The position numbers were made by a program, and so were the translations under genes. A stretch of 64,000 nt of DNA from Thermoplasmatota archaeon (GTDB lineage Archaea; Thermoplasmatota; Penumbrarchaeia; Penumbrarchaeales; Penumbrarchaeaceae): the NCBI GenBank assembly GCA_965234725.1, contig CBDDUX010000004.1, forward strand, positions 1 to 64,000, in the 5' to 3' direction. The stretch's first letter is position 1, and each line of letters begins with the position of its first letter. Positions 1-14,565 of this stretch are shown in pieces. Below the pieces are notes generated by a model, which was not told where the DNA came from, ran no database searches, and worked only from the letters and a program-made list of their open reading frames with translations.

Positions 1-1
1 G

Positions 2-75
2 CGGGCCTGAGGGGATTCGAACCCCTGTACAAAGCTCCGGAGGCTCCGATGATATCCAGGCTACATCACAGGCCC
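2..75 (-). tRNA. tRNA-Arg(CCG), intronless
   Basis: The reverse complement folds into a cloverleaf: acceptor GGGCCTG/CAGGCCC, anticodon arm GGAGC-CTCCGGA-GCTTT (anticodon CCG), T arm AGGGG-TTCGAAT-CCCCT, discriminator G. Base 1 could be the first C of CCA. Confidence 0.95.
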
Positions 76-684: not shown

Positions 685-1518
685 ATGGAATGGCTTGCAG
701 TATCGGACCTCCACGGAAGACCAGAACGCTATAGGAGTCTTTTCAGGGAAGTTTCCCTCAGAAATCCCCCAGCAGTTCTGATGGGTGGAGACCTTTTCCC
801 AAGGAAAGGATCAACAAAGGAATTTCTGGAAGAATACCTCTTCAATCCTATTAAGAAACTGAGGAGAGAGTGTGTCCTAACAAGGTTCATGGTCATTCTT
901 GGGAATGATGATCCGAAAGTGAATGAACCTCTTCTGACAGATGCTGATGGGCTGGGCATTATCGATTATATACCCATGAAGGCCGTGACCATCGAAGGGA
1001 TTCCAGTTGTTGGATATCCGTATATTCACCCCTCGCCGTTCCGCTTGAAGGATTGGGAGCTTTTCGATGTGTCACGGTATATCGATCCCGGATGTATCTC
1101 CCCTCTCGAAGGGATACATACAACCGATGTTGATCTATCGGAATTGAAATACAGGACCATCAAGGATGACCTGAAAAACATTTCCATTCTGAGTGATCCA
1201 AAAAGTACGGTTTTTCTCTTCCATTCACCACCATACGATACGGTCCTGGATCAAGCAGCACTTGGAGGACAGATGGTGGACAATGTTCCATTGGATCCTC
1301 ACATCGGCTCCATCGCTGTTAAGAGGTTTATAGAACAGCATCAACCACTTGTAACCCTCCACGGCCATGTTCACGAATCATTCCAACTCTCTGGTGAATT
1401 CTTCCAACGGATCGGTAGAACTATTTCCATTTCAACATGCGGTATCGAGGAAGGCCTCACATTGATAAGCTTCGATCCATTAGGAATGAAAGAACCGAAA
1501 AGAGAGGTCCTGGACTAG
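685..1518 (+). CDS. Calcineurin-like metallophosphoesterase (Icc-related)
   Basis: Motifs SDLHG, GGD, GNDD, FHSPP and HGHVHE. Start placed at ATG 685, just before the first metal-binding motif. Confidence 0.85.
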   Translation: MEWLAVSDLHGRPERYRSLFREVSLRNPPAVLMGGDLFPRKGSTKEFLEEYLFNPIKKLRRECVLTRFMVILGNDDPKVNEPLLTDADGLGIIDYIPMKAVTIEGIPVVGYPYIHPSPFRLKDWELFDVSRYIDPGCISPLEGIHTTDVDLSELKYRTIKDDLKNISILSDPKSTVFLFHSPPYDTVLDQAALGGQMVDNVPLDPHIGSIAVKRFIEQHQPLVTLHGHVHESFQLSGEFFQRIGRTISISTCGIEEGLTLISFDPLGMKEPKREVLD

Positions 1519-4500
1519 TTCTTTTTATCCGGATACCTGGTTAAGTCCAGTTTCTCGGCATTCCCGTAGAGTGCATCCAGATGGACTGCCCAGGAGGATC
1601 TATCTAGAATATCCTGGTCGGTAATCAGATGGATGTCAAGAAGTCCTCCGGTGGTTATTCCGGTCCTTTCCAGATTCTCCTGGTCCAGTTTTTTACTCCA
1701 TTCATTGAACCAGGCGATCAGGTCTTCCTTTTGCTCCGGTGTTCCCCTGAAATGTATGATCAGATCGATATCGGAAGCTGGTCCAGCGCAACATTCCTTC
1801 ACAGATCCAGTCAAATAGATATCAACTATGCCAAACCTGCCAGAATCAAGTGAGGAAAGCACCTGAATGATCCTATCATACCTCCACTTCGAATGGTCTG
1901 GAGGGGTGATATACGCCACAGCTTCATTCTTATCGCCGTCCATGTAGACCGAGAGGGTCCCTCCCTTGGAGATATCCGGTATGTGGACCAACCTGACCAC
2001 CTCACTCAGTCCCCTTGTTGATTCCACTTGGGATTCAAGGTAGTTCTCCTGGCCCATGATCAGATCCCTGTTCAGGACCGAACCTCCCTCATCCGGGTAT
2101 AGAGGAAGGTACATGATGTTCGCCTCAACCAGATCCTGGAAGAAATGGGTCCCGAACGAGAGTTCTGGCAGGTATCCTCCCTTTCTCCTGGCCACCTCAA
2201 CGAGAAGGCATGTGTTATTGATGTCCTGATACTGGACAGGAACTCCGAGCTTGATATCTCCCCTGCTTCCCCATCTTCCGGGCCCTACAAGTATGAACTT
2301 CCTCCTTGGAAGTTCCTCATTCAGTTCCCCGACCAACCTGGCCACATTGAGCATATCTTCCCTTGAGGAGAGGTTCTCATATCCTTCCGCATCAACATAT
2401 ACAACGAATTCCAGGTTTTTGAGTACCGATGATGTAACATATCTGCTGGCTGTGAACAATATCATCTCGGATGGTATGTCATGAGGAAGAGGGGTCGTCT
2501 CCAGCTTTCCGGACTCCGCCTGAGGTCTGCACTGCAGGATTATCAGGTCCGTTCCATCAGAAGCGAATTCAATGTCAACCGGATATCCCAGCTCTATCTT
2601 CAGGAGTTCCATAATGGAATTAAGGCTCCTGAGATGCGGATGATTCTCATCGAAGCCGTTGAAGGTCACGATAAGATCTTCGGAGTTTTCTATGAGAGAT
2701 GTTGCAGGTGACATCAGGCTACCATCCTTGAAGATGGAGAATATTGACCTGACAAGGGGATATTTTTCGCCATATTCATTCATTATCCGATCCACCGGGA
2801 CCGTTTCCAACCTGTTCTCCTCCAGATTGATCACATCCATGAACCTCTGGGAGTATTGAACTGCCTCATCAACCAGAGTGTTAGCTCTGAGCTGGGGTCT
2901 TTTTGGAGAAATCAAAGTCGGATAATCGTTGGAGATCCTGTCAACGGCCCGGGTTCCCAGACCCACTACCAGCCTGAGTATGCCATCCTCCCTCCTGATC
3001 CTTGGTGACCATCTGAATTCATTGTTGGAAAGAGCCACTCCGGCATATGCCGGCAGATAGAAAGGACCGATCCGCATCCCAACCACCTCCTGTATGATCA
3101 CTCCCATATACTCGAGAAGGTCCAGCATCCCCCTCTCCTTCCTGTATTGAATGGCATTTGGATTGAAAGTGGATGCCCAAACCTCTGCGATCGCATCCTC
3201 CAATGCTCTGAGCTTTTCTTCTAATGTTCCCTTGTTTGTTATAAAAAGGCTCTTATATTTTCCAGAGAAGGCCGCTCCGAAGGAATCCTCCAGATGACTG
3301 GATGATCTGATGATGAGTGGGTTCTCATTTGCCTCCCTTATGACATCCTTGAGACCGTTAACGATCTCCTGGGGGAAAACACCGTTCTTGAACATTTGCT
3401 CCAGGAAGGGTTGTTCGTTCCTTATTTCAGCGGGTTCAAGGTACTTGATATGAGCAACCTCTTCTAAGGTGTTGTAATTGATGAAATCCCTCATGGTATC
3501 GGAACTTACATACCAGGACCTGGCGAAACCTATGTTCTTAATATTGCCATTTGTCTCCATTCCCTTTCTTATTATCCTCTCTGCGAGAATTAAACCCGAG
3601 GCTTTTCCACCAAGGGTCCCGACACCTTGTGAGGGGCCAATAATGGACCCCATTAACTCCGCGAAATCCTGAACCCTGAAATATTTCTTTGCAACATTCA
3701 AGTATTCAAGTCTCGATGTTAAGAACCTTCTGATCAGGTTCGTTCTGATCGTCATCCCATCCTCGAAGGAGAGGAACCTCTCATTAATTGGAACGGACAG
3801 ATACTGATTGAGTATATCAGAGATCTCCGACTTGGATATATTCGGTTTCTCCGAAGAGAAAAGGAGTGGTCTTGTCTTCGATTGCCTGAGCCAAAGTGTG
3901 ATCAATTCAAGGATCTCTCCTGATTGGAGCGTTTGCTTTGCCAGGTCAAATACTGACTCCTCGACCCTTTCAAGAGCGGCAATATCACTTTTAGGATTGG
4001 GGATATTTATTCCGCACCAGGCGGAATCCCTGGAATCGATTGGGCAAAGACCGATCATGATCCCCTCGAAGGATACCTCCTTGTAATGTGATAGATAGTA
4101 GATCATCTTCCTTGTTATCATGAAAAGGGTGGAAGGATCGGTCTTCAGGAGAACATTAAGGATGATCCGCCACTCCTCCTCAATGGAACCGGACCCATCC
4201 TTCGATGTTGCGCTTCTGGCAGATATCTCGTTTAACATCTCCCTATACCTTTTCAACTCGATATCAGCCTGGGTCCTTTCCAGGAACCTTCCCAATCTCT
4301 GGGTGATCGAATCAAGGAGTTTCTTCTCTTCTTTCAGGAACGGGCCATGGTCCTTCTTAGGTTTTTCCCTGATATAAAAGACCTCTATCGATCCGATTAT
4401 CTTTTCTTTGACCTTGATCTCCGAGATCAGATACCATGGAGTGGAAATGAACTTCTTTGTCCTGAAGTCTTTGGCCATGTATCTCATTCTTGCACATGTG

Positions 4501-4691
4501 ATGTCAGGAAACTGGAAGGCGTCAGGGAGTACATCCGTTATCTGCTGGAATATGGAATCCAGGGAGAGAACCGGATCAGAGATTATATCCGCGACCTTGT
4601 ATAGACAATCCAGTTCTTTCATCCTCTCCTTGAGCTCAAGGACCTCATCCGTTTCTCCATTTTTCATATCCTTTTTCCGTGGCATATCCAT
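1515..4691 (-). CDS. PEP synthase/PPDK N-terminal (ATP-grasp) domain protein with N-terminal sensor-like module and C-terminal nucleotidyltransferase domain
   Basis: PPDK_N motifs LGGKASGL, IRSSSHLED..FSGKYKS, GLGTRAV and DIEFA..LQCRP. These are followed by a GPGRWGS...SFGTHFFQ domain and a Pol-beta-type GSV......SDIDL motif. SD-like GGAGGG lies upstream. Confidence 0.85.
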   Translation of the reverse strand: MDMPRKKDMKNGETDEVLELKERMKELDCLYKVADIISDPVLSLDSIFQQITDVLPDAFQFPDITCARMRYMAKDFRTKKFISTPWYLISEIKVKEKIIGSIEVFYIREKPKKDHGPFLKEEKKLLDSITQRLGRFLERTQADIELKRYREMLNEISARSATSKDGSGSIEEEWRIILNVLLKTDPSTLFMITRKMIYYLSHYKEVSFEGIMIGLCPIDSRDSAWCGINIPNPKSDIAALERVEESVFDLAKQTLQSGEILELITLWLRQSKTRPLLFSSEKPNISKSEISDILNQYLSVPINERFLSFEDGMTIRTNLIRRFLTSRLEYLNVAKKYFRVQDFAELMGSIIGPSQGVGTLGGKASGLILAERIIRKGMETNGNIKNIGFARSWYVSSDTMRDFINYNTLEEVAHIKYLEPAEIRNEQPFLEQMFKNGVFPQEIVNGLKDVIREANENPLIIRSSSHLEDSFGAAFSGKYKSLFITNKGTLEEKLRALEDAIAEVWASTFNPNAIQYRKERGMLDLLEYMGVIIQEVVGMRIGPFYLPAYAGVALSNNEFRWSPRIRREDGILRLVVGLGTRAVDRISNDYPTLISPKRPQLRANTLVDEAVQYSQRFMDVINLEENRLETVPVDRIMNEYGEKYPLVRSIFSIFKDGSLMSPATSLIENSEDLIVTFNGFDENHPHLRSLNSIMELLKIELGYPVDIEFASDGTDLIILQCRPQAESGKLETTPLPHDIPSEMILFTASRYVTSSVLKNLEFVVYVDAEGYENLSSREDMLNVARLVGELNEELPRRKFILVGPGRWGSRGDIKLGVPVQYQDINNTCLLVEVARRKGGYLPELSFGTHFFQDLVEANIMYLPLYPDEGGSVLNRDLIMGQENYLESQVESTRGLSEVVRLVHIPDISKGGTLSVYMDGDKNEAVAYITPPDHSKWRYDRIIQVLSSLDSGRFGIVDIYLTGSVKECCAGPASDIDLIIHFRGTPEQKEDLIAWFNEWSKKLDQENLERTGITTGGLLDIHLITDQDILDRSSWAVHLDALYGNAEKLDLTRYPDKKN

Positions 4692-4699
4692 CCCCCCTC

Positions 4700-7657
4700 C
4701 TATTTGTCAGTTGACCTCTGACCAATAGATATAGTCCCCTTTCCATGTTTGCCGTCGATCCTGGTTTTCAAGGGTCGATCAAGCTCAACATGGGTAAGGA
4801 ACCTGCCTTCCAAAAGCTTTCCACTATTTTTTATCAGGTCACGGTTCATGTCTTCGCTTTCTGCAACGGAAAGGGTGAAGTAGCTTCTACGCAGGGAGCT
4901 CAGGTTCTGGAAGAAATGCGATCCCTGGGAGGGATCTATCATCCTTCCTCCAACAGGTGTCTCGACTATCGTTTGGGCCCCGGATACATCAGACCAGTTC
5001 ACAGGAATCCCCATCCAGGGATCAGAGGATCCCCATCTTCCAGGCCCTACAAGTATATAGGGTCGTTTGGAATCGATCATCAGGGTATTCATCCGGGAGA
5101 CCTCTCGTGACACCTCATTTGAACTGGAGAGGTCCAGGTCCGGATCAGTAACGAAGATCAGATCACGGCAATCACTGGATATACCATGTCCAAGGACCTT
5201 GCTGGATCTCATGACCACGGTCTCGCCCTCCTCGGGTTCGATATCTATCTCTCCCGAGCCCCATCTTGCCACCATCGATCTGATCTGGAGGAGGTCTAAG
5301 GCCATCCTCCTATCCTTTTGATCGATATTTACGGTGAACTCGATCTCGACCGGACCACCAAGAGCTTTCTTGCCAATTTCCAGCAAGCATTTGACAACCT
5401 GAGGAAGGGGTAATGTCCTTTCCTTGAGGATGGGGGAAAAATCCATCACCTTCGGCCCCTCCCTAAAGGGGCCCGGATAGAACCGATCAGAAGAAGCATC
5501 GAAAGTAGAGACCAGAAGGTCGGCGGTTCCATCATTAAGGGCGGTCTCCAGGCCTTCGATCCGCAATGTTGATGTCTCCTTTGGATGAGTGCCAGGCACC
5601 CTTGATCCTAAGAAGATTCCGTAGAACTTCCTCTGAGTGGAATCCATTAATTCCTTGGCATCATTGAACAGGGAAATTGCCGGTCTGGAAGGACAGAATT
5701 TCCAACCGCCCATACCGTCCACTATCACCTTTCCGAGGCCAAGGGCGATGGAGACCGTTCCCTCCTCCCTTCCGCAACCTGGAAGGGGCCAGTAATCCTC
5801 CGATCTCGCAACACCTGAAATTGTGGGATAAAAGAGATCCCCATACTTCCTTCCTGAGACCGACTGGATAATTACCCCCATCCTCTCCTCCTCTATCCTG
5901 TTGCTGGTTGTCCTGATATAATCCCTTGCCTCCTTGAAATAGGTGGAGGCGTAGATGTATTTCACTGCTCGTGCAAGCTCGTTGAACCTCGCATCCTCCG
6001 AAGAATCGGTATTTGGGACCATCAAGGATGCGTAAACCCCTGCGAAGGGTTGAAATATTGCATCCTCAAGCAGGGAGGATGATCTGATAGAGAGGGGGCC
6101 CCTCATTGATCTGATAACGCTTCTCAAGTCTCCGGAGAGAGTGGATGGGAGGTCAGCTGAAAGGAACTTCTCTGCGATCCTTTCATCGGACATATCGATC
6201 AGTGCATCATCCAGAAGCTTGTTCTCATCCATGAATCTAGCAAAAAGGTCTGTACAGATGATGACCATTGAGGGGATACGGACCTCTATGCCATTGAAGT
6301 CCGCATCATCGGAAGAACAGATGAAACGATCCATGAAAGCAAGACCTCTGGCCTTTCCACCCATGGGACCCTTTCCGATCCGCATCACGCTAACATCTGC
6401 CGGCACCTTGTCCCGAGTATAATCCAGGATAGAACCCTTCCTGTCAAAGGACCGGACCTCCTTAATCATGTCGAGGAAGGGCCCGGCTTTGATCTCCCCA
6501 CCCCCTGAGGAATGCCTGGATAACCAGGATGCCATCTCGAACTCGCAAATAGAGTGAAGCCATGTTACAAGGTCCGATCCCTTGAAAAGACCAAGCACAT
6601 TATCCTCCTCCAGGGTGGCGATAATGTCCATCAGGGACCTCAGGTCCTTGATCGCATCTCCAGACCCATCACTCATTATTCTGGAAAGGTCTCCAGGCAG
6701 GACCAATACTGATATGAACTCATTTAATTCCCTGTCAATATTGTTCCTTCTCTTGGTCACGAACCTGATCCCATCATAGTCCACAAGGTCAAACTCATCA
6801 TCATCCGATATCATCAGGGAAGGAAAGGCCTTCAGTCGATCGAGGATACCTTGAGATGAACATTCATCCAAACCTGATATTTGTACAACTGTTCCAATTA
6901 TTCGTCTGTCTGGATCATTCAATACACGATCGATATCTTCAAACCGACGGATGATCACTGGACGGGGGAGTCTGCTGAAGATCCTCCGTCTTCTTTTTAG
7001 AGAAGGATCCGGTCCGAGGATCTGTAAAAATGCTTCATGTATCGATCCGTATATCTGCTCAACCATGCTTGATATGGCACCGATGTCATCTCCAATAACC
7101 AAGATTTCCGCAGGATTGAGGAGCGGATCAGCCAGTCTATTTCTTGATAGATCCTCCACCAATCTTACAATGGTCTCGAGAATTGTCCCGTCCCCGCTCC
7201 AGGTCATTACCATATCGAGCATGTCGCCATCCATATTTTGCATGATCCTTCTGATCTCCGGGGTGTTACTGGCAAGGAGTGCCACATTGGTACCCGGTGA
7301 TAGATCCTTGATGGTGGAAGTAAATTCCTCCAGATCCATATCCCAAGGCGGATTGAAGGGAACAACGATGTCATAACTCCTCTTCTCGATCATCTCCAAT
7401 GCCTCTCGGCCGGAGGCAGCATGTTCGATGAGGGGAATGAATCTTGACCCGGACTCTATGTATCTCTCCCTGAAATGGTCCGTCAACCTGCCCTCTTCTT
7501 CAAGAAGAAAGAGATCATAAGGTGTGGAAACCAATAAGATGTTTCTGATACTCGAATATCGGGCACAGTCCTCCGATCGAAAGGGGTGCGGAGGTGATGG
7601 ATCGATCATTGCACTTCCGTACCCCTTCCTATCGGATTCATATCCGTGGCCCTTCAT
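4700..7657 (-). CDS. Receiver-like domain fused to PEP synthase/PPDK N-terminal domain
   Basis: N-terminal REC-like fold (ILLVS...AASGREALEMI..YDIVV). PPDK_N motifs MGGKARGL, IRSSSLLED..FAGVY, GLGK and EIEF..LQIR, followed by GPGRWGS...SQGSHFFQ. Confidence 0.85.
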   Translation of the reverse strand: MKGHGYESDRKGYGSAMIDPSPPHPFRSEDCARYSSIRNILLVSTPYDLFLLEEEGRLTDHFRERYIESGSRFIPLIEHAASGREALEMIEKRSYDIVVPFNPPWDMDLEEFTSTIKDLSPGTNVALLASNTPEIRRIMQNMDGDMLDMVMTWSGDGTILETIVRLVEDLSRNRLADPLLNPAEILVIGDDIGAISSMVEQIYGSIHEAFLQILGPDPSLKRRRRIFSRLPRPVIIRRFEDIDRVLNDPDRRIIGTVVQISGLDECSSQGILDRLKAFPSLMISDDDEFDLVDYDGIRFVTKRRNNIDRELNEFISVLVLPGDLSRIMSDGSGDAIKDLRSLMDIIATLEEDNVLGLFKGSDLVTWLHSICEFEMASWLSRHSSGGGEIKAGPFLDMIKEVRSFDRKGSILDYTRDKVPADVSVMRIGKGPMGGKARGLAFMDRFICSSDDADFNGIEVRIPSMVIICTDLFARFMDENKLLDDALIDMSDERIAEKFLSADLPSTLSGDLRSVIRSMRGPLSIRSSSLLEDAIFQPFAGVYASLMVPNTDSSEDARFNELARAVKYIYASTYFKEARDYIRTTSNRIEEERMGVIIQSVSGRKYGDLFYPTISGVARSEDYWPLPGCGREEGTVSIALGLGKVIVDGMGGWKFCPSRPAISLFNDAKELMDSTQRKFYGIFLGSRVPGTHPKETSTLRIEGLETALNDGTADLLVSTFDASSDRFYPGPFREGPKVMDFSPILKERTLPLPQVVKCLLEIGKKALGGPVEIEFTVNIDQKDRRMALDLLQIRSMVARWGSGEIDIEPEEGETVVMRSSKVLGHGISSDCRDLIFVTDPDLDLSSSNEVSREVSRMNTLMIDSKRPYILVGPGRWGSSDPWMGIPVNWSDVSGAQTIVETPVGGRMIDPSQGSHFFQNLSSLRRSYFTLSVAESEDMNRDLIKNSGKLLEGRFLTHVELDRPLKTRIDGKHGKGTISIGQRSTDK

Positions 7658-7685
7658 CTTGGATTTCTCCCTCTACAGGGTATAT

Positions 7686-8972
7686 CTATATCCATCCTCT
7701 AATCTTTGCCGCCTCTGCTACCCTTGAAATTGCTATCATATAGGCCGCATCCCTCAGAGGGATATTTCTCTTCTTTGAAAGGTCCAGGACAGCATGGAAA
7801 GCTCTGGTCATTTTATCATCCAACTTCCCCAGTACCTCGTCTCTTGACCAGTAGTAGTTCATATTGCATTGCACCTGTTCAAAGTAGGAACAGGTTACAC
7901 CTCCTGCATTTGCAAGGAAGTCCGGAATGACCATCACTTTCTTTTCCCTGAGGAACAGGTCAGCTTCTGGTGTTGTAGGACCGTTGGCACCCTCAACCAT
8001 GATCTTGACCCTGTCAGATATGAACTTGACAGTCTCTCCGTTCACCTGGTTCTCAAGTGCAGCCGGGATGAGGATATCGACATTCTGTTTGATCCAGTCA
8101 TCACCCGGGAGCTTCTTGTATCCCTTCTCCTCCGCCTTGACAGGGTCCACAGTACCGAACCGGTCGGTTATCGATCTCAGTTCATCCAGATCCACACCAC
8201 TCTCCCTTAGATATGTGTAGGAGGTCCTGTCCTTCTGATCCCAGCAGGAGACGCAGATTACCTTCCCACCCATCTGGGTATAAAGCTCGATAGCATACTG
8301 AGCAACGTTACCAAAACCCTGCACAGCTGCCATGGTCCGGGATGGATCCACTTCAAGGTCCTTCAGGGCTTCTCTCAGATGGTATATCACACCGTATCCT
8401 GTTGCTTCGGTCCTTCCTAAGGATCCACCGCTGCCAACTGGTTTTCCCGTGATGAAACCGGGAAACTTACCCCCTGTGATCTTTTCGTACTCGTCGAGCA
8501 TCCAGAGCATATGCTGACCGGTTGTCATGACATCCGGAGCAGGAACATCCTGAAATGGACCCACATTCTTGACTACCTGTCTGATCCAACCTCTGCAAAT
8601 GGCCTCCTGCTCCCTCATTGACAGATCATGGGGATCACAGATGACGCCGCCCTTTCCCCCACCAAGAGGAATGTCGGCTACCGCACATTTCCATGTCATC
8701 CACATTGCAAGTGCTCTGACGGTGTCTGCTGTCTCCTGAGGGTGGAATCTAATTCCACCCTTACAAGGGCCCCTTGCATCATTGTGTTGAACGCGGAATC
8801 CTCTGAATACCTTGTAACTTCCATCGTCCATCCTTACTGGGATGTTGAAATGATATTCCCTCATTGGCTCCCTGAGAAGGGCTCTCGTCGCCTCGTCCAG
8901 TCCAAGAGAGTCAGCAATTTTATCGAACTGCTCCTGTGCCATCTTATAAGCGTTAAAAGCTTCTTTTGCCAT
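7686..8972 (-). CDS. gdhA: Glu/Leu/Phe/Val dehydrogenase (glutamate dehydrogenase)
   Basis: Motifs GPCKGGIRFHP, MTWKCA, GGGKGG, DVPAPD, GRTEATGYG, QGFGNVA and EGANGPT. Start at ATG 8972 with GAGGAG upstream. Confidence 0.93.
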   Translation of the reverse strand: MAKEAFNAYKMAQEQFDKIADSLGLDEATRALLREPMREYHFNIPVRMDDGSYKVFRGFRVQHNDARGPCKGGIRFHPQETADTVRALAMWMTWKCAVADIPLGGGKGGVICDPHDLSMREQEAICRGWIRQVVKNVGPFQDVPAPDVMTTGQHMLWMLDEYEKITGGKFPGFITGKPVGSGGSLGRTEATGYGVIYHLREALKDLEVDPSRTMAAVQGFGNVAQYAIELYTQMGGKVICVSCWDQKDRTSYTYLRESGVDLDELRSITDRFGTVDPVKAEEKGYKKLPGDDWIKQNVDILIPAALENQVNGETVKFISDRVKIMVEGANGPTTPEADLFLREKKVMVIPDFLANAGGVTCSYFEQVQCNMNYYWSRDEVLGKLDDKMTRAFHAVLDLSKKRNIPLRDAAYMIAISRVAEAAKIRGWI

Positions 8973-9426
8973 GTAAACTCCTCGATTTATCGACCCGTTG
9001 ATGGGGCCGGGATACTCCAGATATTTCGGATATATAATCGTTGTGATGATTTCAACAATTTGTACCGGATAAGAAAACATTTCATGTCAATTTGTAACAT
9101 GGATAGTATAAGACTTGCTCTCACTTTTACCCTTTAACACAAGAACTGGTCAATTCTTTGAAAAGTGCCAAATATGGATTTGACAAATGGTGTTTTTCCA
9201 TGGAATATCGAGTTATTTGTCCCAGTATTGGTCGATATAATGGCTCAAAATACTCCAGATCTCCTCCGAAATTTTGAAAGTCACATGGAATTTGAATCCA
9301 TTTGGAGGATATGGATGGTGGATGTCAATTTCATAATGATGGCAGAAAGGAAAAGGAATCCTCATCTATCGGGATTGCTGGATTTTGTACCAACTCTTGG
9401 AAGAACAGGGAATCCTGAAAACAATA

Positions 9427-12133: not shown

Positions 12134-13462
12134 ATGGTCACAGTCGTCCCTTTCAAAGCATATAGATACAATAAGGAAGCTATAACGGATCTCTCAAAGG
12201 TAGTGGCTCCTCCCTATGATGTTATCAAGGGGAAGAAACTGGACGCGGTCCAGGCACTTTCTCCATACAATATCTCATGGATCACCAAGAACAAACCCCG
12301 GGAAGGGGACACAACCGATGATAACCAGTATACAAGGGCTAGAGACCTTCTCAATGATTGGATATCAAAAGGGATCCTTGAACAGGATGGGGAGGATTCC
12401 TTCTATGTCTACTCACAGGATTTCGAGGTTATGGGAAGGACACTCACAAGGTTCGGTTTCATCGGCCTTCTTGAATTGGAAGAGTTCGCCAAGGAAGCTC
12501 CGAAGGAAGGTCCTTTTGCAGGAGTTCTCCAGCATGAGGAGACCCTTCCGAAGGATATCGAGGATAGACTGAACCTCTCCCGGAACACTATGGCTCAGTT
12601 CGGACAGATCTTCGTCATCTATCCCGACCAGGAAGGAAGTGTGGATTCAATACTTATCAAGAACATGGAAAAGGACCCATCGATGGATGTTGTGGATAAC
12701 GAAGGTATCCGACACAGATTGTGGAAAGTGGACTCCCCCGAGGATACGGGAGCGATCACCCAGCTGATGGGGAACAAGTTCGTGATAATCGCTGATGGCC
12801 ACCATAGGTACAAGACGGCCCTTGCTTTGAAAAAGGAGCAACCGGAATTGGAAAGTGCAAGGTTCAGGATGTTGACATTTGTGAATATGTCGAATCCGGG
12901 ACTTGTGATCCTTCCCACACACCGATTGGTTCAGAACCTGGAAGATTTCGATATACCTTCACTCATCCAGAAGATGGAGATGTATTTCACCATCAAGAAG
13001 CATGTTTCAAAGGATGAGATGTTCCTGGAGATGGATGGTTCTTTCCAGGAAGGAAAGCATTCATTCGGTGTATATCTCAACAACGGGGATTTCTATTCCA
13101 TGGAACTCAAGGATGTCTCGCCCATGACTGGACTCCGGAAGGATGCCTCACATGAGCTCAGGCAATTGGATGTTGCCATCCTTCACTCAATGATACTGGA
13201 TAATATCTTGGGCATAGACAAGGAGAAGCTTCTCCATGGAACCATGACCGGAGGCGGTTATGTTGTCTATATCAAGGGAATTGGCGATGCGGTGGATGAA
13301 TCCATTCAATCCGTCAATGATGGAGCCCAGTGTGTCTTCTTCATGAACCCCACAAGGATAGAAGAGGTCGAATCGGTCTCAAAGAACTTCGAATGCATGC
13401 CCCAGAAATCCACCTTCTTCCATCCGAAGGTCTGGACTGGATTCACGATCAATAAGCTTTAA
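12134..13462 (+). CDS. DUF1015 family protein (ParB/Srx-like fold)
   Basis: Motifs APPYDVI, HEETL, IADGHHRY, ILPTHR and MPQKSTFFHPK. Confidence 0.88.
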   Translation: MVTVVPFKAYRYNKEAITDLSKVVAPPYDVIKGKKLDAVQALSPYNISWITKNKPREGDTTDDNQYTRARDLLNDWISKGILEQDGEDSFYVYSQDFEVMGRTLTRFGFIGLLELEEFAKEAPKEGPFAGVLQHEETLPKDIEDRLNLSRNTMAQFGQIFVIYPDQEGSVDSILIKNMEKDPSMDVVDNEGIRHRLWKVDSPEDTGAITQLMGNKFVIIADGHHRYKTALALKKEQPELESARFRMLTFVNMSNPGLVILPTHRLVQNLEDFDIPSLIQKMEMYFTIKKHVSKDEMFLEMDGSFQEGKHSFGVYLNNGDFYSMELKDVSPMTGLRKDASHELRQLDVAILHSMILDNILGIDKEKLLHGTMTGGGYVVYIKGIGDAVDESIQSVNDGAQCVFFMNPTRIEEVESVSKNFECMPQKSTFFHPKVWTGFTINKL

Positions 13463-13476
13463 ACGAGGTGAATTGG

Positions 13477-14565
13477 ATGACAAAAAGGGTAAACAACTTC
13501 TATGCAGGCCCTGCCACACTACCATTACCGGTGCTTGAAAGGGCAAGGGATGAGTTCCTGGACTTCGCCGGGACTGGTATGTCCGTAATGGAGATATCGC
13601 ACAGGTCAAAGGAATACGACAAGGTCCATCAGGAATCAATGCAGCTCGTTAAGGAGCTTATGGGCCTGAAGGATGACAGGAAGGTCATGTGGCTCCAGGG
13701 AGGGGCCTCGACCCAGTTCTACATGGTCCCGTTGAACCTCCAGCTGCCCGGAAAGAAGATGCAGTACGTCAATACCGGAGCCTGGTCGAAAAAGGCCATC
13801 AAGGAGGCTGGGTTCTACGGTGATGTTGAGGTCGTCGCATCTTCAGAGGATACCAAATTCTCCTACATTCCCAAAGGTGTCCAGTTCTCGGAGGATGCCG
13901 CCTTTGCCCATATTACCGGCAATAACACCATTTACGGGACAGAATGGCATTACATGCCCAAGGTTCCTGATGAGGTCCCCCTCGTCAGTGACATGTCATC
14001 CCATCTCATGGACAGGGTCATGGATTACAACGCCTTCGATGTGATCTATGCTGGAGCTCAGAAGAACCTCGGCCCTGCTGGTGTTACACTGGTTGTTGTC
14101 AGGGAGGATCTTCTTGAGAGGGTCCCTCAGAATACTCCGACCATGCAGAAGTGGTCCACTCAAGCTGCAAAGGATTCGCTATTCAACACAGGACCTGTCT
14201 TCCCGATATATATCTGCAAATTATCCATGGATCACATGAAAGAGATGGGCGGGATCGCTGCCATCGAGAAGATCAATCGGGAGAAGGCAAAGGTGGTCTA
14301 TGATGTCATCGATGGTTCAGGAGGCTTCTACAAAGGGCACGTGACCGATAAGGACTCGAGGTCCCTTATGAACGTCACCTTCAATCTGGCAACACCCGAG
14401 CTCGAAGCAAAATGTGTCGAAGAGGGCAAGGCAAGGGACCTCATTGGTCTCAAGGGACACAGGTCCGTTGGAGGAATGAGAGCTTCCATCTACAATGCCA
14501 TGCCTCTCGAAGGCGTAAAGGTCCTTGCGGAATTCCTGAAGGAATTCCAGTCAAAGAACCAATGA
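13477..14565 (+). CDS. serC: Phosphoserine aminotransferase
   Basis: Motifs NFYAGPA.LP, SVMEISHRS, QGGAS.QF, DMSS, YAGAQKNLGPAG (PLP lysine) and GHRSVGGMRASIYNA. GAGGTG precedes ATG 13477. Confidence 0.95.
   Translation: MTKRVNNFYAGPATLPLPVLERARDEFLDFAGTGMSVMEISHRSKEYDKVHQESMQLVKELMGLKDDRKVMWLQGGASTQFYMVPLNLQLPGKKMQYVNTGAWSKKAIKEAGFYGDVEVVASSEDTKFSYIPKGVQFSEDAAFAHITGNNTIYGTEWHYMPKVPDEVPLVSDMSSHLMDRVMDYNAFDVIYAGAQKNLGPAGVTLVVVREDLLERVPQNTPTMQKWSTQAAKDSLFNTGPVFPIYICKLSMDHMKEMGGIAAIEKINREKAKVVYDVIDGSGGFYKGHVTDKDSRSLMNVTFNLATPELEAKCVEEGKARDLIGLKGHRSVGGMRASIYNAMPLEGVKVLAEFLKEFQSKNQ

Follow-up and report, generated by a model that had tools for sequence, protein, structure and literature searches.

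Glutamate dehydrogenase (GDH) is the enzyme at which carbon and nitrogen metabolism meet. Glutamine synthetase has the GlnE/GlnD/PII system, in which GlnE acts on the synthetase and GlnD on PII by nucleotidylylation; for GDH, we know of no dedicated post-translational control in most prokaryotes. The gene cluster analysed here lies at the start of a 64,000-nucleotide stretch of DNA from a Thermoplasmatota archaeon of the family Penumbrarchaeaceae (contig CBDDUX010000004.1, positions 1 to 64,000; hereafter the window). It comprises a GDH gene (gdh, product GDH1), two further genes for proteins of about 1,000 residues with a dikinase-like core, A and B, and a metallophosphoesterase gene that converges on B. 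Comparison with other genomes revealed that this gene set stays with gdh as a unit across the domains of life.

Several described systems resemble the cluster in part. By analogy, GlnE and GlnD also place a Pol-beta-fold nucleotidyltransferase, hydrolytic removal and sensors at an ammonium-assimilating enzyme; however, we found no homology beyond the nucleotidyltransferase fold and no counterpart of the ATP-grasp/His core, and whereas GlnE/GlnD rely on an HD domain or on a further transferase domain for removal, the enzyme in our proposal would be a metallophosphoesterase. Among solved structures, the best match to the core, by structure and by sequence, is rifampin phosphotransferase (RPH-Lm; 5hv1, 5hv3 and 5fbs; E 4e-14 to 2.6e-13 with Foldseek and 9e-12 to 9e-6 by profile). 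Like A and B, it has the ATP-grasp domain first, a His domain at the C terminus (residues 758-867) whose swivelling fold A and B probably share, and no phosphoenolpyruvate (PEP)/pyruvate barrel. It differs from them in having a domain devoted to rifampin binding and a His domain of the canonical PEP-utilizers kind, whereas A and B have sensor or receiver modules, a nucleotidyltransferase module, linkage to gdh and a His domain that is not recognized by the PEP-utilizers model PF00391. PEP synthase (PpsA) and pyruvate phosphate dikinase (PPDK) share with A and B the PPDK_N ATP-grasp with its catalytic motifs and, by structure comparison, the probable fold of the carrier domain, but they possess the barrel, their His domain is detectable by hidden Markov models (HMMs) and their genes showed no linkage to gdh in the 20 control loci described below. 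Aromatic ketone kinases of the HpeI/AcvAB type are split over two polypeptides. Their ATP-grasp subunit (9goj) is matched by fold at E 3e-11, but these enzymes act on small aromatic substrates, belong to catabolic operons and have neither gdh linkage nor sensor modules.

The nearest functional precedent is VadK (Rv1127c) of M. tuberculosis, which derives from PPDK but has no barrel. It autophosphorylates on His422 and is reported to interact with metabolic enzymes, those of the methylcitrate cycle, and to tune them (PMC13400623). It is described as having two domains and no more, one that binds ATP and one with the phosphotransfer His (PMC13400623), and by that description, on which the comparison is based, it is a dikinase without a barrel that has turned regulator, as we propose for A and B. 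Its reported partners are methylcitrate-cycle enzymes and not GDH, and no sensor, nucleotidyltransferase or phosphoesterase partner is described.

Linkage of the gene set to gdh in archaea and bacteria

The genome of this archaeon encodes three GDH paralogues (GDH1, GDH2 and GDH3) and three barrel-less members of the dikinase-like family, namely A, B and paralogue C (contig C18). Forty genomes of relatives were searched with A and with GDH. A GDH at least 70% identical to GDH1 was present in 18 of them, and in 16 of these it immediately preceded an A orthologue in the same orientation; G005 and G022, which make up the 18, had GDH and A on separate short contigs. In at least 12 relatives, A was followed by a B orthologue that shared its contig and strand, and several genomes (G003, G006, G007, G008 and G013) held an NADP-type GDH3, GDH1, A, B and paralogue C within about 17-21 kb, with GDH2 as well in G003. 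As a control, about 20 kb around the canonical PPDK or PEP synthase genes was inspected in 19 relatives and in the archaeon itself, and GDH was found in none of these 20 loci.

The linkage extends far beyond close relatives. A degenerate-pattern scan of the genomes of 185,579 species yielded at least 621 stretches, and the best 80 loci were analysed. These came from Thermoplasmatota, Bacteroidota, Ignavibacteriota, Acidobacteriota, Desulfobacterota, Planctomycetota, Gemmatimonadota, Chloroflexota and others, and included Bacteroides, Prevotella, Phocaeicola, Parabacteroides and sediment archaea. With tblastn, GDH was found in the fetched flank (about 10 kb) at 50 of the 80 family loci and no more than 700 nt from the family gene at 43, and the full order GDH1-A-B was present at 17. 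Among the 30 loci without GDH, 19 had a flank of less than 8 kb on at least one side. In some phyla the same gene set occurred in shuffled order, either with B divergent from GDH1-A (L020 and L022) or with GDH1 next to B and A apart (L026 and L028). When 918 neighbouring open reading frames (ORFs) were clustered by all-against-all blastp, three families recurred: the family itself (79 loci), GDH in two clusters (42 and 11 loci) and a 289-residue phosphoesterase (12 loci). Besides GDH, no neighbour family exceeded 12 of the 80 loci, and the one at this level was the phosphoesterase itself. The original prediction, which had called for a neighbourhood survey of this kind, is therefore upheld in its linkage to gdh, both among relatives and across phyla and against the control; the anaerobic bacteria that it named as hosts are too narrow a range, the host here being an archaeon. 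None of the outcomes that the original prediction itself had listed as refuting was observed.

Two types of locus can be distinguished. Type I loci contain GDH1, A (often only as a 590-residue core) and B, with the phosphoesterase. Type II loci, found in Bacteroides, Prevotella, Ignavibacteria and Desulfobacterales, contain one receiver-type family member beside a GDH of the NADP-GdhA type. Between this archaeon and the bacterial cassettes, GDH1 is 61-78% identical and the A core only 37-45%, and from these sequences the module appears to move between archaea and bacteria.

Two further observations concern the relatives. GDH3 is convergent with paralogue C in at least seven of them. In a genome of the same genus with a 94-95% identical cluster (G004:C11:151903-158937), the matches to GDH and B contain in-frame stops and A is intact; these stops could reflect either decay of the module or sequencing error.

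Domain composition of A, B, the phosphoesterase and GDH1

Both A and B contain the PPDK_N ATP-grasp domain (PF01326; E 7e-30 and E 3e-47, respectively, both over the cut-off), and the Pfam search found neither the PEP-utilizers domain (PF00391) nor the PEP-utilizers_C barrel (PF02896) in either protein. All three domains are present in the true PPDK of the same genome (contig C62), and an Rph-like protein on contig C108 combines PPDK_N with PF00391. An alignment of 119 sequences was built from A, B, paralogue C and 116 homologues of the A core taken from databases; in it, the ATP-grasp motifs GGK, RSS..ED, E.EF and LQ.R were invariant or nearly so, including in A, B and C. The PEP synthase models of NCBIfam scored 46-47 bits against cut-offs of about 600-880, with matches confined to the ATP-grasp, and RIF_Ptrans_rph scored 30.9 bits against a cut-off of 999, which indicates that A and B are not Rph equivalogs. 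An AlphaFold model of the A core (561 residues; predicted local distance difference test score (pLDDT) 87.9, predicted template modelling score (pTM) 0.85) matched rifampin phosphotransferase (Foldseek E 4e-14), HpeI, PEP synthase and PPDK. In this model the swivel domain follows the ATP-grasp directly, with no substrate-binding domain between them, unlike in Rph, and no domain other than these two is predicted to be able to bind a small substrate. By their sequences, A and B are thus descendants of the PEP-utilising dikinases that, because the barrel is absent, fall outside that class. The domain order given by the original prediction, PPDK_N followed by a GPGRWGS...G(S/T)HFFQ domain without a barrel, agrees with both the Pfam and the motif readings, and its statement that the proteins are not a PEP synthase fits the missing barrel and the separate true PPDK of the genome.

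The family is large, with more than 7,999 matched database proteins under names such as 'PEP/pyruvate-binding domain-containing protein' and 'phosphoenolpyruvate synthase'. In three of them (P0012, P0024 and P0046; about 1,630 residues), A and B are fused into one protein with two PPDK_N stretches and two His motifs, and A-B fusion ORFs also occur at loci L033 and L046. A and B are paralogous and sometimes fused, and because such fusion proteins exist, they are predicted to work together.

The C-terminal domain of about 190 residues carries GPGRWGS in both proteins, followed by SQGSHFFQ in A and SFGTHFFQ in B. The patterns G..GR.G and S-x-G-x-H-F-F, together with the His that the original prediction had singled out as invariant (H914 in A and H849 in B), are indeed invariant across the 119 aligned members. 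Three family motifs, ILV..(S/T)xDPW, IVxT..GG...(S/T)H and IDGxxG, follow one another in the same order as in the PEP synthases and PPDKs of the relatives: YILVGPGRWGSSDPW corresponds to ILVT.MTDPDW or ILVR.ETSPED, TIVETPVGGRMIDPSQGSHFFQ to AIVTD.GGRTCHAAI, and RIDGKHGKG to TVDGS.G.V. Modelled alone, the His domain of A (190 residues) reached a pLDDT of 90.3. The His starts a helix after a loop of lower confidence (pLDDT of the block 73 when the domain was modelled alone, 65 within the core), and this loop is compatible, in the models, with an exposed one.

In an exhaustive VIA-align search of the A His domain over 48,161 chains, the first rank was taken by the nuclear magnetic resonance (NMR) structure of the PPDK phosphoryl-carrier domain (2fm4; root-mean-square deviation (rmsd) 3.1, 115 of 128 residues), at a Z of 6.9 that, by the tool's own warning, lies within the range that unrelated folds can reach. 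Further phosphohistidine domains stood at ranks 3 (the PEPut domain of pyruvate kinase, Z 6.3), 4 (the His domain of rifampin phosphotransferase, Z 6.3) and 6 (maize PPDK residues 374-511, Z 5.9), and N-terminal domains of Enzyme I occupied ranks 10, 11 and 15 (Z 5.1-5.4). The remaining matches were other swivelling beta/beta/alpha domains, such as the apical domains of GroEL/thermosome and of the transferrin receptor, and aconitase domain 4. The domain is thus likely to have the swivelling beta/beta/alpha fold, and its homology to the carrier domain is not proven, because Z values of this size are in the range of common arrangements. A Foldseek search of the isolated domain against the PDB returned nothing at E <= 0.001, its weak hits being chaperonin chains and PPDK, and in an hhalign comparison of the family profile with the PPDK of the same genome only the GGK motif aligned. 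The structure prediction of this domain that the original prediction had proposed gave the PPDK carrier domain as the best match, one that is not significant by sequence.

The N-terminal modules differ between the two proteins. That of A is a double receiver-like region, whose family profile matches response regulators at E 5e-4, although Pfam made no receiver call for it in this protein; the N termini of A-type proteins in relatives match PF00072 and DUF5752, and the relatives and paralogue C give weak to clear receiver matches. Throughout the family, the first receiver module has N or other residues at the position of the acceptor Asp, and the second module reads VQI here where the PF00072 relatives read ITD. 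The N terminus of B is a conserved module, ER.KEL.CLY...PPGWQYPDIC...GPFLKEE, with two conserved Cys residues and no Pfam match; an Atlas search with it found mostly the family itself, with GAF domains at 0.80-0.81, below the level counted as more than a lead. The claim that both proteins carry N-terminal sensor modules can be kept for the Cys module of B and for the receivers of relatives, but the A receiver is degenerate here. The term 'signal-responsive' likewise applies clearly only to B and the relatives, the A receiver having no acceptor Asp.

B ends in a Pol-beta nucleotidyltransferase (NTP_transf_2, PF01909; 24.8 bits against a cut-off of 21, E 2.8e-5). The signature G[SG]-x9-13-D-x-[DE] with a third carboxylate is present, and GS-x10-SDIDL and LLD.H are kept in 12 of 14 aligned B sequences, the other two ending before the domain. 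The B profile matches kanamycin nucleotidyltransferase weakly (E 0.018); in single-sequence searches of the PDB, the last 138 residues of B gave only matches at E > 0.5, and the phosphoesterase gave none. In the phosphoesterase, which is of the calcineurin-like type (PF00149), the metal motifs DxH, GD, GNDD, H and GHxH (D31/H33, G58/D59, G96/N97/D98/D99, H203 and G250/H251/H253) are invariant in 12 orthologues, and its profile matches only aq_1956 (2yvt, E 6e-4) in the PDB. Of 20 B-containing loci, 12 have an orthologue 40-48% identical to it beside the 3' end of B, convergent in 11 cases, and this recurrence argues that the metallophosphoesterase belongs to the gdh-A-B module. The original prediction grasped the gdh/A/B part of this module but overlooked both the nucleotidyltransferase of B and the partner phosphoesterase. 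PADLOC matched no defence family to A or B and gave the phosphoesterase only one weak match (PDC-S10, E 1e-6), which we take as general metallophosphoesterase similarity, and a reading as a defence system was dropped.

GDH1 has both ELFV Pfam domains and an invariant GGGKGG catalytic motif, and its best solved relative is the Thermococcus GDH (1euz, E 1e-118); its sequence places it among the hexameric glutamate dehydrogenases of the archaeal/Gram-positive type. Its NCBIfam GdhA_Arch score of 455 bits is under the cut-off of 750 and therefore points to a distinct subfamily, with glutamate as the predicted substrate. A six-residue insertion (VSCWDQ.D..SY, at residues 243-257; here CWDQKD...) follows the second Rossmann strand. 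The insertion is specific to the subfamily, being absent from GDH2 and GDH3 of the same genome and from 1euz, and is a candidate recognition or modification site.

Further observations on GDH genes and paralogue C came from elsewhere in the genome and in databases. On contig C105 (129-4899, minus strand), GDH2 (3637-4899), a histone deacetylase (HDAC)-type protein (1803-3653) and the NADP-GdhA-type GDH3 (129-1463) are arranged head to tail. The protein between the two GDHs has 616 residues and a C-terminal histone-deacetylase-family domain, and the position of this deacylase gene hints at acyl-lysine control of GDH. No NCBIfam model matched the HDAC-like protein or the metallophosphoesterase. 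Fusions of GDH with phosphoglycerate kinase (PF00162) of about 1,100 residues occur among database proteins (P0145-P0150), two of them named Candidatus Scalindua. Paralogue C (1,009 residues; 1695-4724, minus strand) lies at the start of contig C18 beside a transposase-like helix-turn-helix (HTH) gene (995-1495), and GDH3 lies at an end of contig C105; because of these positions, an insertion element may have broken the assembly of a GDH3/C pair. On each of the two contigs, a NosD/beta-helix giant also adjoins the GDH genes or paralogue C.

Layout, expression and surroundings of the cluster

The positions of the features are collected in Table 1. The gdh, A and B genes are arranged head to tail, and direct reading of the letters and the list of ORFs both confirm the co-orientation and the short gaps of the original prediction: 28 nt between gdh and A (7658-7685) and 8 nt between A and B (4692-4699), with a GGAG-type ribosome-binding site inside each. 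The gdh frame is open from 7686 to 9080 and is thus longer than the gene; the ATG at 8972, already chosen in the original prediction, is supported as the start by the position of a GAGGAG and by homologues that begin to align at residues 33-37 of the long ORF. The stop codons of B and of the convergent metallophosphoesterase gene overlap in the palindrome CTAG (1515-1518).

Table 1. Features of the gdh-A-B cluster and of other parts of the window (positions in nucleotides of the window)
Feature	Position	Strand	Description
gdh (GDH1 type), 428 residues	7686-8972	-	Pfam ELFV_dehydrog_N and ELFV_dehydrog
Gene A, 985 residues	4700-7657	-	receiver-like N terminus 1-424, PPDK_N 432-795, divergent swivel domain 796-985
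C-terminal swivel-like domain of A	4703-5272	-	GPGRWGS 5027-5047; His914 codon 4916-4918
Gene B, 1,058 residues	1515-4691	-	Cys-containing sensor-like N terminus, residues 1-350
PPDK_N ATP-grasp of B	2499-3617	-	residues 359-731; Pfam
Swivel-like domain of B		-	motifs: GPGRWGS 2265-2285; His849 codon 2145-2147
C-terminal Pol-beta nucleotidyltransferase of B	1683-1874	-	residues 940-1003; Pfam NTP_transf_2
Metallophosphoesterase, 300 residues	616-1518	+	Pfam Metallophos, E 5e-10
Shine-Dalgarno-like GAGGAG	8983-8978	-	6 nt upstream of the gdh ATG, read from sequence
TATA-like ATTATATAT	9038-9030	-	about 60 nt upstream of the gdh ATG, read from sequence
Likely promoter and leader of the gdh-A-B cluster	8978-9038	-	
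tRNA-Arg(CCG)	1-75	-	at the window edge
Pentapeptide-repeat protein, 100 residues	295-597	-	immediately ahead of the phosphoesterase gene, which is on the other strand
DUF1015 protein, then class-V aminotransferase	12134-14565	+	5-nt gap between them
Giant protein, 1,337 residues	16343-20356	+	Peptidase_C25 (gingipain-like) domain and many immunoglobulin-like domains; probable surface protein
Kelch-repeat giant protein, 1,483 residues	22875-27326	-	probable surface protein

Contigs assembled from RNA libraries and assigned to a closely related strain cover gdh as well as portions of A and of B, and the gdh/A junction is bridged by a contig of 1,325 nt (7327-8651). The three runs belong to a single sediment study; of the words sampled, no more than 7-14% were present as assembled contigs, so that uncovered stretches are uninformative. 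These contigs give some indication that gdh and A are expressed and co-transcribed, and they do not prove a single transcript. That the host is an archaeon is borne out by neighbouring genes for fibrillarin and HerA and by the closest homologues (67-70% identity), which are named Thermoplasmatota.

A possible covalent switch on GDH and its alternatives

We tentatively propose that A, B and the phosphoesterase form a functional module dedicated to the adjacent GDH, in which signal-gated His-phosphotransfer and nucleotidyl-transfer would mark GDH and the phosphoesterase would erase the mark. The chemical steps and the target we infer from the domains, and the proposal as a whole, plausible as we find it, is one to be held loosely. 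A and B have kept the ATP-grasp and probably a much-diverged swivelling phosphohistidine domain, and have lost the PEP/pyruvate barrel. Each ATP-grasp would phosphorylate the invariant His of its own protein (H914 or H849) from ATP, and the pair, having no substrate domain, would hand the phosphoryl group in trans to GDH. The C-terminal nucleotidyltransferase of B would add a nucleotidyl mark or write this mark instead. The Cys-rich N-terminal sensor of B would gate the reaction, as would the intact receivers on the A-type and type II proteins of relatives, and the metallophosphoesterase would take the mark off. The presence of a nucleotidyltransferase and a partner phosphoesterase makes a cycle of writing and erasing the more natural reading.

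Several results weigh against this proposal. Eleven of the 80 family loci have full flanks and no GDH nearby, and none of 54 longer GDH homologues is fused to PPDK_N, an absence that is weak evidence in itself and that leaves a physical coupling of GDH with A and B without support from fusions. The type II loci lack both the nucleotidyltransferase and the phosphoesterase, which implies that neither is essential to the function of the core. The acceptor Asp is missing from the A receivers, so that A may not be signal-gated in this organism. For the His domain, besides the Z of its best structural match, which unrelated folds can reach, the PF00391 HMM matched none of A, B and C at E <= 0.001 in 41 genomes, and hhalign of the domain against 26 PEP-utilizers domains, in default and global modes, gave a probability of 1% and a pairwise E of 0.049; when hhalign was run greedily, H914 fell on the catalytic His, again at a non-significant probability of 1%.

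A and B could instead be a metabolite dikinase or an ATP-coupling device, in which the phosphorylated His would phosphorylate 2-oxoglutarate, glutamate or ammonia, possibly on GDH, and ATP hydrolysis would drive or redirect the reaction. The characterized fold relatives (PEP synthase, PPDK, rifampin phosphotransferase and HpeI) all act on small molecules, 2-oxoglutarate is a 2-oxo acid as is pyruvate, and the minimal conserved pair, seen at the type II loci, is the core with GDH; moreover, the GDH1 insertion sits in the Rossmann (nucleotide-binding) part, which suggests that the enzyme itself is specialized. However, in the model of the A core nothing besides ATP-grasp and swivel domain is seen that could bind a substrate, parts such as sensors, receivers, nucleotidyltransferases and phosphoesterases are typical of regulatory cycles, and we know of no such phosphorylated metabolite; we regard this explanation as rather unlikely. 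That the dikinase-like proteins are ordinary PEP synthase or PPDK paralogues is scarcely credible: the database names and the weak NCBIfam matches point that way, but the latter are confined to the ATP-grasp and far below their cut-offs, the PEP-utilizers_C barrel is missing and the genome has a complete PPDK.

The nucleotidyltransferase of B may also be the writer by itself, adenylylating or uridylylating GDH, with the phosphoesterase removing the nucleotide and the ATP-grasp/His parts serving as energy or metabolite sensors or exerting control by autophosphorylation. The GS..x10..DxD motif with a downstream acidic residue is kept in most B sequences, the NTP_transf_2 match is over its cut-off, the binuclear-metal motifs of the phosphoesterase are intact and its linkage is specific to the 3' end of B, and there is the analogy with GlnE and GlnD and their targets. 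Nevertheless, the type II loci and the B homologues of L034 and L021 keep the core and the GDH linkage without the transferase, and the invariance of the ATP-grasp motifs and of the His argues that the core itself is catalytic, so that we consider this account unlikely. Finally, the target could be a component of carbon/nitrogen control other than GDH (a PII-like protein, a transcription factor or a 2-oxoglutarate enzyme), with gdh merely co-regulated. The full-flank loci without GDH and the lack of a GDH-PPDK_N fusion speak for such a target; against it, GDH lies within 700 nt of the family gene at more than half of the analysed loci, this adjacency outlasts both the shuffling of gene order and the apparent transfer between domains, and no other neighbour family recurs at a comparable frequency. 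We judge a target other than GDH to be quite improbable.

Returning to a module that marks and unmarks GDH, we can put it in its broadest form: a horizontally mobile, cross-domain covalent switch on GDH, the counterpart of the GlnE/GlnD control of glutamine synthetase, in which the sensor-gated pair of A and B, sometimes fused, would with its nucleotidyltransferase put a phospho or nucleotidyl mark on the enzyme for the phosphoesterase to erase, while receiver-type single-gene versions would act on NADP-GdhA in Bacteroidota, Ignavibacteriota and Desulfobacterota. In this full generality, the idea is speculative and we hold it to be doubtful. If it were true, such a switch could explain old reports in which the GDH of Bacteroides was reportedly inactivated reversibly in vivo.

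In summary, a full-text literature search, with subscription journals and older papers outside its scope, found no description of a gdh/A/B/phosphoesterase module, and because the gene set stays together across archaea and many bacterial phyla without a published description that we could find, it is a concrete and testable candidate for dedicated control of GDH. If this is confirmed, PPDK-derived regulatory kinases such as VadK would extend from one actinobacterial lineage to a family of thousands of proteins, and the many database entries now named as PEP/pyruvate-binding proteins or PEP synthases would receive a new annotation. The family is relevant to gut and sediment microbes alike, among them Bacteroides, Prevotella, Phocaeicola, Parabacteroides and the sediment archaea.

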